DNA from: Octopus vulgaris
Taxonomy: Eukaryota
DNA: 64,000 nt
Direction of reading: 5' to 3'
Assembly: GCA_951406725.2 (NCBI GenBank)
Contig: OX597832.1
Coordinates: 38,688,001-38,752,000, forward strand
A program made the position numbers and the translations under genes. Below, in pieces: positions 23,185-55,921 of this stretch (positions are counted from its first letter, which is position 1; every line of letters starts with the position of its first letter). The notes beneath the pieces are model-generated. The model worked only from the letters and a program-made list of their open reading frames with translations, ran no database searches and had not been told where the DNA came from.

Positions 23185-23256
23185 ACAAAGTTCTCAGTCT
23201 TATCATTTTAGGCACGAAAGAGAATATTAGTATTTTTGTCGATAGCTGATGAAGAA
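23185..23256 (+). ncRNA. Degenerate non-circularly permuted hammerhead motif
   Basis: acaaag/ttttgt extra helix; ttctc(ag)TC vs GAAAgagaa; ttatc/gatag-CTGATGA; stem II decayed. Confidence 0.45.
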
Positions 23257-26214
23257 TTTGGATCTTTTATTATGTCAACCCTATGTGTACGTTTTGTATT
23301 ATTTAATGCATTTTCATATATATATATATATATATATATACTTTATTTGTGGGTTAAAAAGGCTACCAACGGTTTTGCGTAAAGAGACGTGTCTTTACAA
23401 TTTTTAAGTGTACCACATGCTCACTTCCATGTTGACAGATAGATAGATAGATAGATGGATAGGTAATGTTTATATAGTTGTACAAACGTAAATATATTAT
23501 ACATATATACATATATACATATAAATGCGTATACGTATTATGCATGTATCTATCTACCTACCTACCGTTCTATCTATCTATCCATCTATCTATCTATCTA
23601 TCTATCTATCTATCTATCTATATATCCATATATATATATATATATATATATATATATATACATAATACATAATGCAAACATATATACACTCACACACGGA
23701 CGCGCGCGCACATATATATATATAACATATACATACATACATGTAAGAATGTAGGCATGTATGTATGTAATATAGCTTATAATACACAATCAGTATAAAA
23801 TGAGCGGCCATAAGAGGCACATAGATAGAAAGGTGAGAAGTGGGACAGTTATAGCAAGACGTGGATCAGCAGAAAGACGGATAAAATGATTGTAAAATAT
23901 ATACATATATAAAATATATATAAAATAGATGTATAAAATATATATGTAAATATATATCCATAATATATTATATATATATATATATATATATAAATTAGAA
24001 AAAAACACCTTTTATCAATTCAAAATGAACGATTAAATTACACCATCTAGAAATTGTTCATTTTGAACTGGTAAAAGGTGATTTTTCTAATTTTTATATA
24101 TATTTTATATTTTGTGAAATTTGATTTAGTATTTCTAAATTGAATTTTTCCCCTGTAAGTTAGGAATAATATTCCCACAAATAATTATACATACATATAT
24201 ATATATATATATATATATATATATATATATATATATATACATATATATATTAAATTTGCAAAGGTATGAACGGAAGAAAGAATGAATGACAAGAAGTGAA
24301 GAAATGAGAAATGAGAGGCACCGAAGAAAGTTCATTGTGGGCGACGAAACAGTTGACGCATCTAAAAAGTGAGGGGATTAACCGGTGACATCTATATGAA
24401 TGCGCGCATGCATGTGTGTGTTTGTGTGTGTGTGTGTGTTTGTGCGTGTGTATACATGTATACTCATACATGTAAACACACACACATATATATATGTATA
24501 TACACAAGTTTATGTACATATGTATATGAATAGTTACATGCGATCTTGCATACACAAACATATGCATGTGAACTTATATATATATATATATATATATATA
24601 TATATATATTTATACATGCATATATATATACATTTATATATCTACATATATATATATATATATATATATATAATGTATATATGTATATATATACATAAAT
24701 AATAAATATTTATGTATATATACACGTATGTATATATGTCTGTATGTATCTATATGTATATATATATATATATATATATATATATATATATATATATATA
24801 TGCATATATATATACATATATATATATACAGGTATATATATATACATACATACATATATATATAAATGCATATATATATATATATATATATACATATATA
24901 TATATATCATATACACGCATCTATACATATATGTACATACATACGTAGATATACTGGCAAAGACATTAGATGATTTATGCAAAGAAAAATTGGTTTCGTG
25001 TAACGTAACTTGTAAGGGCGAACGGTGGATAAAACATCTTGTGATCTATCTTAATATCTGATCTTAACTCTCAAGTCCATGTCTCAAGCAAAACGTTTAT
25101 TACTTTAAGAAATGCTGACCTTTGACACTAAAACACCATATCATAATTACATAGGGCCTCTTATTCGCTCTTATCTCTGTTTTCTATCAAGCATCTGAAC
25201 AGTTTTCTCCCCTTCCCGCTGTGAAACTCTCCTATGTTTAGAAAACAACATTCTTTCGCCAAAACTATCTCCTGCTTCACAACAACATCATTGCTTTTTA
25301 TGTGTTTCTGAAAAGTTCAGTCTCTCTCTCTTCACTCACTCACTCCCTCTTTATATTACTCTCTCTCTCTCTCTTTTCCCACTCCCTTTGTATCCCTCTT
25401 TCTTTCTCTTTACTTGATTTATTTCTCCTTCTTTAAGAAGTATGCAGCATTTTGTGTGCGCGCCTTATAGACTAACACGCACACATATGTCTTTATCGAC
25501 ACACACACAAAATATACATATACACACACAAATATCTTTATAGACACATGACAGATATATACATATACATATATATATATATACATATATATATATATAT
25601 ATATATATATAGATAGATAGATAGATAGATAGATAGATAGATAGATAGATAGATAGATAGATAGATAGATAGATAGATAGATAGATAGATGGATATACAT
25701 ACACACACACACACACAAACACACACACTCACGAAATTATATATACATATGTACGTGTGAGGTTACTTCATTAAATAAACGACTGTGTTCAAGTTTTATA
25801 TCCATTTCAGAATTTTTTTATTTTGTCTATTTTACAGCGAGTTTGGAACAAAACCGTTTTCAAATTCATGTTCGAACCCGCCATACCGTTACAATCTCAT
25901 TTTCAAGAATTCAATATTTGTTGCCTTCAGTGTTGTTTCATACAAATTGGTTGAATCTCATGTAGACTCACAAACCAACAGTCACGTGTTGATCTACTTT
26001 TTGTGCTCCCTATGCTTGCCCATAAGATTTTCATGGCAGTACACACGTATCAAGTTTTCGATGCGTACCGGTCATTTGTGCATTTATTCGTGAAGTGTAT
26101 TGCGTTGTGAATATGGCTTCCATGAATCTTCTATTTTCACCCTGAATTTTAAAGAGTATTTAAGTATTATCCTGTTGTATTTTCTCTAATTTCGTTTTCT
26201 GTATATAGTATAGT

Positions 26215-26547
26215 GTTTGGCGATAGAACTCCTTCGGTCATGAATGACCATGGGATTGCACCTAGAAAGTTAACCTCCGAGACACAAGTCCAAGCAAGGT
26301 TGTTTATAGAAGTCGCCTATGCATGTCAATTTCTCCTCCCCATGCCATTGATGTTATCCAAAGGAAAGGCAAATGTCTCTAAAACTTGGCACCAGTGTAG
26401 TCACGATTCATTTCTACAGCTGAGTGAACTGAAGCAATGTGAAATGAAGTGTCTTGCTGAAGAACACAACACACAGCCCGGTCCGGCAATCGAACTCACT
26501 ATCTCATGATTTCGAGCTCGACACTCTAGCCACTGAGCCATGCACCT
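26215..26547 (-). mobile_element. SINE family Z-like head with an RTE-like tail
   Basis: Minus ggaggtgcatggctcagtgg...agttcgattgcc...cacttcatttcac. Confidence 0.65.
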
Positions 26548-27056
26548 CCTATCATAACTGCATGGTGTGCCTACGAGAGGATGTTGTACAAGTATGTCCA
26601 GTGTTATTCCTGATGTCAAGAAGTTTTCAACTTTCAGTTTAGCAGGTGAATTTACAGATTACATTGGTCATTTCTACAATGTTCTTGGGTTTACATGTAT
26701 GAGAAGTGTAATTGATAAGGATGCACTGAGTTTGGTGCTTATGTGATATATTATTCGTTTTAAGTGTATACGCCGGTTGGAGATATAAGTATACGTACGT
26801 GTCTATGTACGCATCTCTCTCTCTCTCTCTCTCTCTCTCTATATATATATATATATATATATATATATATATATATATATATATATATATATGGGTGTGT
26901 GTGATTGTGTATAGAAGAATATATTAATAAAAAGAATTCCAACCTTGTCTGATTTTCACGTTTTATTTACAATCTTATAATGATATATTATAAGATAATA
27001 TATTATAATTGAATAAAATAAAATGAAATAGTAGAATGTTAAATATTCATTCTGAT

Positions 27057-27101
27057 TGAACTAGTACTTTCATGCATTGAATTCTGCAATCTTCGGGTTC
27101 A
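27057..27101 (-). ncRNA. Minimal type I hammerhead in the PLE 3' pLTR
   Basis: Minus: tgaac-CCGAAGA-t-tgca gaattcaa tgca-t-GAAA-gtac-TA/gttca; 5-bp stem I, palindromic AGTACT. Confidence 0.75.
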
Positions 27102-54084: not shown

Positions 54085-55070
54085 CGAATATGGCGGGGCA
54101 TCGTTTCCAATTCAAACTGCTCCAGCATTTGGAATGTCCTCGCTCTATGTAGCCGAGTATTATTCTAATGGAAGGACACCTTTCCTCTTGAAACCAAAGA
54201 TGCTTCTAGCGCTGACTTGAGCCGCTCAAACTGCTCGCAACAGATCTTTGTTACCGTTTGGTTTGGGTTTAAAAGTTCAAAGTAGACTAAACCTTTCATA
54301 TCCCACCAAACAGATAACAACACTTTAGGTGCGTGAAGACCTTCATTAGCCTGGAGTGCCGGTGTTTCTCATTTCCCTATCCACTGTCTGTGGCGTTTGG
54401 CATTTTCCAAGAAAATCCATTTCTCGTCACTAGTCACTGTTCGGTCCCAAAAAGATTCGTTCGTGAGACGTGGCAGTAAAGAAGATCATACATTCACTCT
54501 CTGCACGCGATTATACTCAGAAAGTTTGTGAGGAATCCATTGACCCAATTTGCTGACTCTTCCGATGACACGCAGGTGTCAGTGAATGCTCGAATGACCG
54601 AATTCAAGCTTCTCCACTTGTTCGTCAACAGTTACGATGGGATTTTGTTCCACAAGGTTTTTTATGACGTCCTCGTCGAGCTCTACAGATCTTCCAGGAC
54701 GGGGCTCGTCTTCTAGGCTGTAGTTTCCGGTTCGGAATCTCTGGAACCACTGCTGACATCGGCTTATGTTTATTATCCGATCCTCATCTACCGCATTAAT
54801 ATTCTTCGCACTTTCCGTTGCGTTGTTGCCTTTATTGACATCATAAAGCAAAATATGTCGAACATGTTCCTTTGTCACTTCCATTTATATCTTTGAAAAA
54901 TAACTGTTAAAATCGAAATGAACTCTTCAAAACTTTTACCTTGTCCTAAGAATTAGGACAAGGTAAAATTACTACCTGCTTTTATAGCAAGTTGATGCAG
55001 GTAGTTTATACCATCCTCCTCCGACTTTTAGTTCATGCAATTAAAAATATCGCATTATTTATGGGATGTT
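54085..55070 (-). mobile_element. mariner transposon (second subfamily), degraded
   Basis: MEVTKEHVRHILLY..WFQRFRTGNYSLEDEPRPGR HTH region; VTSDEKW; TIR-like end at ~55045-55068. Confidence 0.9.
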
Positions 55071-55116
55071 GTTATATATGCATAATTCTTGTTTGTTTCT
55101 TAGTATACATTCGCCC

Positions 55117-55186
55117 CCAAAATTGAGTGGTCTCAATGATAATGGCGCGAAATCATTATGATATTTTGGCTCATTGACTGACGAGG
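55117..55186 (+). ncRNA. Non-circularly permuted hammerhead, sequence-divergent subfamily (GUC site, 55132)
   Basis: Extra helix ccaaaat/attttgg; III agtggt/GAAAtcatt; I tcaatga/tcattga-CTGACGA; stem II only G10.1-C11.1. Confidence 0.65.
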
Positions 55187-55848
55187 AAAACTCAGCTGCG
55201 AATATTCCGTGTATTGTGTCTTTGTCTAAATTTCCCGTCCGTTAAGATTTCGTTTACTTTCCCGTTTGCTCTGCTTTCGTCTAACTTTTTCTCCTTGTGT
55301 TCTTTCTGTTCAACCCCCGATACTTCCATGTAGAGCAATGCACACTCTGTTTGTTTAGTTTATTATAAAAGATATTCCTTGAATATTTATTGTGAGACTC
55401 TTAACTCTCTCTACTATATATATTTGCCACACTGGACGAGTAATGCAATATAACAGATACAGGTTCTGTCGTTAACCAGCTGGAAAAGATGCATTATTCT
55501 GAATGGAAGAGCCTCGTAAAAGTGGCAACAATCGGTACTGTTTAGTACTGTTACTACGTGAATTTCTATCAGAGATTTTAAAACCAGCTACTTTAGCTTT
55601 ATATATATATATATATATATATATATATATATATATATATATCTTTCGTCGTCTAGGCTTATAGGCCCTCATTATTTGTTTTCCTGTCCTGTTTCTATTC
55701 CTTCTCGTACTGTATGTTTTGTAATTGTATTTTTATTTTGTATTTGTTTTTAATTGTATTGCTTTTACGTCCTGTTTTTGTCACATTTTTGTTCCTTGTT
55801 TTTACCCCTCTGCAAAGGAATTTTATTTAATTCTTTCGCAGGAAGGAT

Positions 55849-55921
55849 TAGTCGACGAGACGTGTTCTGTCCTCACCTTCGAAACACGCTGGAGTTGAAC
55901 TAGGGACAGCTGATGAAGGGG
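55849..55921 (+). ncRNA. Non-circularly permuted hammerhead (GUU site, 55866) in (TA)n-flanked element 55640-56160
   Basis: Extra helix tagtcgac/gttgaacta; III cgtgt/GAAAcacg; I ctgtcc/ggacag-CTGATGA; II gggg/cttc. Confidence 0.7.

Follow-up and report, generated by a model that had tools for sequence, protein, structure and literature searches.

What kind of ribozyme, if any, is formed by hammerhead sequence blocks that recur in an order belonging to none of the hammerhead types I, II or III, and what carries it through an animal genome? This question is raised by a 64,000-nucleotide (nt) stretch of the Octopus vulgaris genome (GenBank assembly GCA_951406725.2, contig OX597832.1, positions 38,688,001 to 38,752,000, forward strand; the window, numbered from its first letter). 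An earlier sequence-only reading had described eight loci with the block order UH, GAAA, CUGANGA as copies of a pseudoknotted hammerhead whose permutation is non-circular and which a dispersed mobile element carries; our analysis supports this description. Judged from the sequences, the motif is real and abundant, its helices covary, and its strands are connected in a way that is new for the non-circular class of hammerheads, to which it belongs. It is likely to be a cis-acting hammerhead with a split-core strand order, located on Naiads, which are Penelope-like elements, and on Naiad-like non-coding units.

All eight loci share CGAAA followed 22–28 nt later by CUGANGA, and at each of them a UH block lies upstream of both. 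The sequence-only reading had named a hit rate equal to that of shuffled sequence as grounds for dropping the proposal; the window holds eight such matches, against a mean of 0.06 and a maximum of 1 in 100 shuffles. A three-helix scan of the window covering all six orders of the blocks UH (S), GAAA (G) and CUGANGA (C) returned three hits, all in the order SGC, and none in the orders CGS, GSC and SCG of types I, II and III. Stems I and III and an additional helix drawn earlier (here helix T) are present, and the cut positions proposed at 32243, 51513 and 55132 are correct by hammerhead numbering. The expectation that standard models would miss the motif was borne out: Rfam gave no match at gathering score in seven loci, and among the 150 of 484 window matches listed in E-value mode there was no hammerhead family; those listed were all microRNA models, nearly all on microsatellites, and none reached the gathering score. 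The block order has a published precedent in type SGC, which was shown to cleave in vitro and, in the available text of that study, was found only in metatranscriptomes (Eckert et al. 2023, PMC10085705).

The anatomy drawn earlier has to be revised at stem II. It had been built from the strand that follows CUGANGA, which offers 4 base pairs (bp), two of them Watson–Crick, in sequence families A and B, 1 bp in families C and D, and 2 bp in family E. The 5 nt before GAAA pair with a strand just upstream of helix T, and this is the true stem II: GAGCA/UGCUC (A), GAAGG/CCUUC (B), GCGCC/GGCGC (C), GUGCC/GGCAC (D) and GACAC/GUGUC (E), a Watson–Crick helix of 5–6 bp in all five family majorities that differs in sequence between families. 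In every family examined the upstream strand begins with G, which is G10.1, the partner of C11.1. The strand after CUGANGA pairs farther upstream, forming helix IV (4–11 bp in the family majorities), and directly 3′ of the helix IV 5′ strand lies hairpin V, which ends at G10.1. The strand order is IV, V, II (with G10.1), T, III–UH–I, II′–GAAA–III′, T′, I′–CUGANGA, IV′, with a linker of 1–5 nt between I and II′, and two helices (IV and V) split the core between A9 and G10.1. The sequence-only reading had overlooked the upstream stem II strand, helix IV and hairpin V. Its caveat that stem II was short and rich in wobbles was right about a weak stem and wrong in taking that stem for stem II, and the three constructs it suggested lack the helix IV 5′ strand and contain little or none of hairpin V, the one at 55105–55200 coming from a copy without G10.1. 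In the four best copies, duplex energies are −7.3 to −8.5 kcal/mol for the upstream stem II, −8.4 to −10.9 kcal/mol for helix IV and −3.4 to −3.7 kcal/mol for the stem II drawn first.

Genome-wide, the core pattern CGAAA-N22–28-CUGANGA has 37,367 matches in 2.8 Gb, compared with 4,883 in the reversed control, and searches of the same genome with the single families returned 4,233 (A), 2,772 (B), 481 (C) and 494 (D) first-look candidates, 40 of which were scored for each. As a sample we took the first 100 genome matches listed, picked on core spacing only, with no pairing rule. A UH block with stems I and III was found in 46 of them (null 2.2), an upstream stem II of at least 5 bp in 44 (null 7.4) and all features together in 25 (null 0.07, maximum 2); many of those without the full feature set are 5′-truncated. 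A descriptor written for the split form recovers four of the eight window copies (scores 29–34) plus one loose hit, shuffles giving 1 hit in 100. It passes 33 of the 100 sampled matches and yields 76 hits in 606 kb of loci versus 2 in five-fold shuffles, and these hits include a new family, F, from the flanks. None of 123 loci on viral contigs with the same core order passes it.

Covariation, whose absence the sequence-only reading had named as one refutation of its proposal, was found both across families and within the alignment of family F. Across families, 34 complete copies and the five family majorities formed 12 sequence groups. Strands of stems I, II and III pair with their own partner at 4.8–5.0 of 5 positions and with swapped partners at about 2.1; for helix IV (11 groups) the values are 4.1 and 1.7, and 0 of 20,000 permutations reached the own-partner values. 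C3, G5, G8, G12, U16.1 and the G10.1–C11.1 pair are kept across the 12 divergent groups, for which the core bases were among the criteria of selection; H17 is G in none of them. In family F, 22 copies chosen from the sampled 100 for an intact 5′ part are 88% paired under a seven-helix model, with 23 of 42 pairs altered on both sides (none in 500 shuffles; 26–55% for slid controls). Helix T alone is 87% paired there, with changes on both sides in 4 of its 7 pairs, and G10.1–C11.1 and A15.1–U16.1 occur in 22 of 22 copies each. The covariation thus supports the seven predicted helices, and the motif has what defines a hammerhead, namely CUGANGA, GAAA, UH, G10.1–C11.1 and A15.1–U16.1, with covarying helices I, II and III, three in all, surrounding the core. 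That a genome so rich in repeats produced the pairing by chance, as might be suspected from the loose window hit (47737, minus strand, score 23.5; unrelated) and the single hit in 100 shuffles, is ruled out by the shuffles and by the way the helices covary between families, and we consider it exceedingly improbable.

Several observations weigh against this reading. The 12 groups were chosen for stems I–III, which makes the pairing test partly circular for these stems (helix IV was not a criterion). Helix IV and hairpin V taken by themselves are modestly enriched in the sample (45 of 100; null 27, maximum 41), the two helix IV pairs beside A9 are open in 12 and 14 of the 22 family F copies, and helix IV is weak in the octopus Naiad. 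Nested folding of intact copies gives helix IV (0.87–0.97) and hairpin V, with stem II only at 0–0.18 and stem III at no more than 0.06; nested minimum-energy folding cannot form pseudoknots, and pseudoknotted helices are therefore not recovered. Within families A–D, core positions are barely better conserved than others, all 13 core nt being retained in 4 of 25 copies of family C and 10 of 25 of family D, although a core that decays nearly like its flanks is expected if selection acts on source elements only.

Could the loci instead be ordinary type SGC ribozymes, with G10.1 and stem II right after CUGANGA(A), and the upstream strand and helix IV acting as an inhibitory fold or as the outer pairs of a nicked stem II? 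A G does stand one or two nt after A9 in families A–E, families A and B can make 4 bp if wobbles are counted, at least three such pairs are possible in 30 of the 100 sampled matches (null 6), and Penelope hammerheads are known with a single additional nt after A9 (PMC4209133). Four Watson–Crick pairs, however, occur in only 2 of 100 (null 1.1), the stem is 20% paired and shows no covariation in the 22 family F copies, its duplex is weaker in energy than both the upstream stem II and helix IV, and several published Naiad motifs have no G after A9. We therefore regard this reading as quite improbable. Compared with types SGC (HRIMA-1) and CSG as published, the octopus motif has the same cyclic block order, the short linker between I and II′, a helix tying stems I and II, and the full core. 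In the published types CUGANGA runs straight into stem II and 'block C' is held to be indivisible, whereas here the stem II strand lies upstream, with IV and V in between; the examples in the available text come from metatranscriptomes and metagenomes and from no genome of a known organism, whereas these are in an animal genome (PMC10085705). The helix joining stems I and II that type SGC requires (PMC10085705) is present at their outer ends, as is the order S, G, C, and a stem II strand 0–2 nt after CUGANGA is absent. The published SGC pattern demands CUGAUGAG or CUGAUGAUG leading into stem II (PMC10085705); re-implemented, it matched none of the 8 window copies, none of the 100 sampled matches and none of the 5 family majorities.

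How, then, might a core that is split between A9 and G10.1 be active? In the hammerhead structure, stem II stacks on the G12–A9 pair, so that A9 and G10.1 must adjoin. In the split form, helix IV would stack on hairpin V, and A9 would meet G10.1 at a single nick across the resulting four-way junction, rebuilding the normal active site. Helix T would stand in for the usual tertiary contact between stems I and II, and cleavage is predicted after H17 by standard hammerhead chemistry. The same helices might form between two RNAs or two tandem units: minimal Penelope hammerheads act as dimers (PMC4209133), partial tandems occur in 3–6 of 25–30 loci per family, and the linker between I and II′ is only 1–5 nt long. 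This arrangement appears improbable, since all partner strands lie within 110–140 nt of one unit, stem III is not palindromic, and published SGC ribozymes, which typically have a 3-nt linker at the same place, cleave during transcription (PMC10085705). A cis-acting split form also resembles the pseudoknot (pistol-like) hammerhead of Zhan et al. 2024 (PMC11300833), in which stem II is likewise a pseudoknot accompanied by an added helix; there, the C3–A9 loop joins helix I straight to the pseudoknotted equivalent of helix II, whereas here A9 enters the separate helix IV. In the open full-text literature, with subscription papers and bioRxiv supplements outside the scope, we found no link of permuted hammerheads to Naiads and no helix inserted between A9 and G10.1, and the term 'Type-SGC' occurs in Eckert 2023 only. 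In their available parts, a November 2026 paper cites only its refs 13, 30 and 31 for extra-helix or permuted variants, Forgia 2023, one of these, has only two length variants, and Perreault 2011 only core insertions of 1–2 nt.

The link to Naiads comes from published consensus sequences, in that the 3′ ends of Naiad_Obim and Naiad_Ovul carry the same motif (PMC8557442 supplement), and it is on this match that the link of family E to Naiad is based. A 20-nt piece of the Naiad 3′ motif has 301 exact matches in the genome and none in controls. The ribozyme lies downstream of reverse transcriptase (RT) remnants on the same strand in three loci (L209, L211 and L213), and fragments of the GIY-YIG region precede RT in two others (L210 and L226), with Pfam scores below the cut-off. 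Fifteen loci with more divergent Naiad RT hits (L214–L228) yielded nothing beyond family-E-like 3′ cores at three loci and one loose descriptor hit inside coding sequence. Craig et al. 2021 described Naiads as targeting (TA)n and as lacking canonical hammerheads (HHR), some holding 'HHR_core' or 'half_core' strings that fit no descriptor (PMC8557442). We parsed the 54 published Naiad consensi by eye, and the split six-helix form is found in nine of them, from four phyla: Clytia Naiad-3, three Acropora, Morbakka Naiad-2, Pomphorhynchus, Darwinula Naiad-4 and two Octopus; in a Beroe consensus only stem I, at 2 bp, departs from it. No G stands within 2 nt after A9 in the motifs of Acropora, Morbakka, Pomphorhynchus and Darwinula, so that G10.1 can come only from upstream. 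Another six consensi (three Nippostrongylus, two from further nematodes and Stegodyphus mimosarum) have type CSG, with A9 running into stem II. The split form shares its cyclic order with type CSG, which makes one a circular permutation of the other; the split form would be the CSG ribozyme of other Naiads opened between A9 and G10.1. We conclude that the motif is very probably the missing ribozyme of many Naiads.

Two points count against the Naiad link: no single decayed locus holds endonuclease, RT and ribozyme together, and the 54 consensi were parsed by eye from the CUGANGA listings of the supplement and not by program, a procedure that misses strings split by line ends and takes species from file order. 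Several arthropod and hemichordate cores parsed as neither form. The Naiad ends of Parasteatoda, Limulus to Darwinula (parts 17–19) and Saccoglossus have CUGANGA and nearby helices with a clean fit to neither (PMC8557442 File S5); such ends may represent further variants or another ribozyme class. Among the CUGANGA strings listed for bivalve Naiads, there was no 3′ core (PMC8557442 File S5).

The mobile carrier claimed by the sequence-only reading is confirmed, and its identity, which that reading had not named, is a Penelope-like (Naiad-type) pseudo-long-terminal-repeat (pseudo-LTR) unit. Copies have a common fixed 3′ end in TA-rich sequence and variable 5′ ends. Full units measure about 0.7–0.8 kb and contain no open reading frame (families A and B measured), and most units are single, truncated copies. 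Per family, 3–5 of 25–30 loci have an inverted copy and 3–6 a direct partial tandem; (TA)n lies near the 3′ end in 20 of 30 A loci and 25 of 30 B loci, and a short tail repeating the unit start follows in 2 of 30 and 3 of 30, respectively. Because 5′ truncation, partial tandem, inverted 5′ copy, tail and (TA)n target all match features described for Penelope-like elements, Naiads included (PMC8557442), the carriers are Penelope-type repeat units. As in those Naiads the ribozyme lies near the 3′ end, on the sense strand, although families A–D and F have no open reading frame in the copies seen. Placement in pseudo-LTR or tandem units, autonomous and non-autonomous carriers and a probable role in cutting tandem transcripts are also shared with minimal type I hammerheads of canonical Penelope-like elements and of non-LTR retrozymes (PMC4209133, PMC7229834, bioRxiv 10.64898/2026.07.22.740005). 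Those are circularly permuted, have a tiny or palindromic stem III, act as dimers and lie in units of about 300 nt, whereas the octopus motif is non-circular, with seven helices; being neither type I nor, in most copies, tandem, the octopus units are not non-LTR retrozymes. A weakness of the carrier assignment is that families A–D and F are not linked to any coding element, no open reading frame being attached in 110 loci. Against the Naiad 3′ end, families A–D gave no blastn match. No autonomous partner turned up for the window families, and the tie between families A–D and F and Naiad would be the common ribozyme architecture only. A young Neptune-like element (775-amino-acid frame, 4.27-kb tandems, 17,770 first-look candidates) was considered as a partner and rejected, as it has no blastn similarity to families A–E and its 3′ region holds, by eye, a canonical-order minimal hammerhead.

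If the ribozyme cuts, and copies are reverse transcribed from the cut RNA, we would expect insertions to end at the cut. Breakpoints were collected from copies with an intact GAAA and an assignable family (67 of the 100 sampled, 25 of 30 Naiad and 33 flank copies). Forty-six copies break within the examined region. In 30 of these the break falls in the stretch from 15 nt 3′ to 3 nt 5′ of the predicted cut, where 10.7–11.7 would be expected with weighting for TA microhomology included (P ~1e-8). In the unbiased set alone, 23 breaks fall in the 19 nt at the site versus 5 in the next 55 nt, and three copies (L128, L326 and L335) start at nucleotide 1.1 directly after (TA)n. The pile-up might alternatively come from a hammerhead derivative that no longer cuts and serves as an element for RT binding or pausing, with breakpoints reflecting stalling at helix II or (TA)n microhomology; some breakpoints do fall within the II′ strand, and (TA)n adjoins many of the junctions. 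However, 16 of 28 C1 breakpoints lie between −8 and +3, past helix II, TA/AT weighting leaves P ~2e-8, and the catalytic positions are kept in the divergent groups noted above (with the core bases as selection criteria there). We judge the non-cutting derivative unlikely. Two findings speak against cleavage as the cause: the Naiad subset shows no truncation step (3 breaks at the site versus 7 upstream), and the control that covers truncation on the 3′ side of the ribozyme is small (31 hits), its breakpoints being evenly distributed and less frequent. The truncation pile-up in the non-coding families suggests cleavage in vivo. About one-third of assignable copies end near the cut and 39 of 67 extend well past it, suggesting that both cut and uncut or re-ligated templates are copied. 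As a separate observation, 3 of 30 Naiad copies (L111, L130 and L140) have a common truncation point at the 5′ edge of the stem I′ strand, a possible second hot spot that coincides with the edge of the motif used for selection.

What the ribozyme does for its carrier is more tentative. It may cut tandem transcripts into monomers, as has been proposed for other Penelope hammerheads (PMC8557442). The cut ends would still be paired through IV, II, T and III, and we propose that this favors re-ligation into a circle, of the kind found in retrozymes. Reverse transcription would begin in the TA-rich end, some 200 nt 3′ of the cut, and would halt at the cut on a linear template, whereas an uncut or circular template would give full-length and partial-tandem copies. 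Taking the elements together, it seems to us reasonably probable that all animal Naiad hammerheads are non-circular, type CSG in nematodes and a spider and the hitherto undescribed four-way-junction form split between A9 and G10.1 in cnidarian, acanthocephalan, ostracod and octopus elements, and that the split form, with about 30,000 copies here, cleaves in vivo and clasps its cut ends for circularization.

If this is correct, it would answer a puzzle from Craig et al. 2021, in which Naiads thrive without canonical hammerheads, a loss perhaps even helpful. Non-circular permutations would move from a few hundred environmental sequences of unknown host to animal genomes with tens of thousands of copies, and the assumption that CUGANGA and stem II are inseparable would be broken. 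Current search patterns build in this contiguity, so more ribozymes have probably been missed. CSG, SGC and the split form would constitute a natural series related by circular permutation, such as tandem pseudo-LTRs could generate, and the 5′ truncation step would offer a genomic read-out of cleavage in vivo.

Within the window, the copies at 32224, 51493 and 55849 are intact and that at 50502 nearly so. The first belongs to family B and occupies 32169–32298 (+), with helix IV at 32169–73/32294–98, hairpin V at 32174–32215, stem II at 32216–20/32253–57 (G10.1 at 32216), T at about 32224–32/32270–78, stem III at 32238–42/32261–65, stem I at 32244–48/32282–86, GAAA at 32258–61, CUGAAGA at 32287–93 and the predicted cut after A32243. 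Its 5′-truncated unit (32042–32511, +) adjoins a (TA)n tract and shares 96% identity with a full-length unit, some 790 bp long, at another place. The intact family A ribozyme at 51443–51573 (+) has helix IV at 51443–49/51567–73, V at 51450–86, II at 51487–91/51525–29, T at 51493–99/51546–52, III at 51508–12/51533–37, I at 51514–19/51554–59, CUGACGA at 51560–66 and the predicted cut after A51513; its unit, also 5′-truncated (51228–51793, +), has a (TA)n end and then a short tail (51727–51793) repeating the unit start. The third intact copy (family B2, 55805–55921, +) has helix IV at 55805–09/55917–21, V at 55810–41, G10.1 at 55842, G12 at 55881, CUGAUGA at 55910–16 and a predicted cut after U55866. 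In the nearly intact A-like copy at 50500–50624 (−; unit about 50255–50660), G10.1 is at 50585, G12 at 50542 and C3 at 50513, the predicted cut follows 50559, and stem III has 3 bp.

Decay has affected the other four. Two A-like copies form a head-to-head inverted pair (35147–35569), an arrangement with an inverted 5′-truncated copy that is described for Penelope-like insertions (PMC8557442): 35237 (−) is inverted, 5′-truncated and without the helix IV 5′ strand, and in 35404 (+) a C stands in place of U16.1 (position 35421) and stem III is weak. Both are probably inactive. The family D copy (23146–23262, +; unit about 22975–23329; G10.1 at 23172, cut position 23199, G12 at 23216, C3 at 23246) has a stem III broken by two mismatches, yet this stem is 6 bp in the family D majority. 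The family C copy (55111–55190, +; unit about 55112–55415; cut position 55132, G12 at 55149, C3 at 55178) has lost the helix IV 5′ strand, hairpin V and G10.1 to a deletion.

In the family A unit (for example L009, oriented 1170–1395), the tail has a GTAAGT that resembles a splice donor; a pyrimidine tract and a TTGTAG resembling an acceptor are also present, the splice-like sites lying at 51773–51778 and 51309–51314 in the window. Together they suggest a putative intron close to where the unit begins, of the kind described for the 5′ regions of Penelope. For the family B equivalent, no GT–AG joint was seen in four contig sets presumed to be RNA that cover the unit, sets that are uninformative on ends, strand and level.

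Canonical-order hammerheads are also present. A minimal type I hammerhead at 10675–10713 (+), absent from the earlier list, has CUGACGA, one extra A, a 4-bp stem II, GAAAC and a palindromic stem III, and its repeat has relatives near 3938–4121, 33169–33362 and 42621–42827. Canonical-order cores number 33,591 in the genome versus 4,710 in controls. The two commonest types among the matches listed have stem II GGCUG/CAGCC and GAGC/GCUC directly after CUGANGA-A. Because families F and A place the same stem II strands upstream, exchange between canonical and split forms is suggested by these sequences. The very young Neptune-like Penelope element is represented in the window by its 3′ part at 26880–28804 (−), and further by loci L259 and L260, with 150 of 150 scored hits identical across 134 amino acids and, by eye, a minimal hammerhead of type I (core CCGAAGA) at about 27102–27056.

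Among the remaining elements are 3′ ends of long interspersed nuclear elements (LINEs) at 53150–53560 (−) and at 31822–31912 and 32545–32593 (+), which are presumably of the restriction-like-endonuclease type that they resemble; the family B copy at 32042–32511 is inserted within the second. Decayed mariner-like transposase pieces lie at 14234–15028, 48223–49067 and 54579–54884, with weak Pfam Transposase_1 and DDE_3 hits in the piece 48228–48674. A 400-bp near-perfect palindrome (96%) at 49598–49997 has CUGAUGA in each arm and no fitting GAAA block. Finally, two frame copies that are 94% identical (12945–13396 and 29081–29528) encode several C2H2 zinc fingers and are probably the end of a LINE open reading frame.

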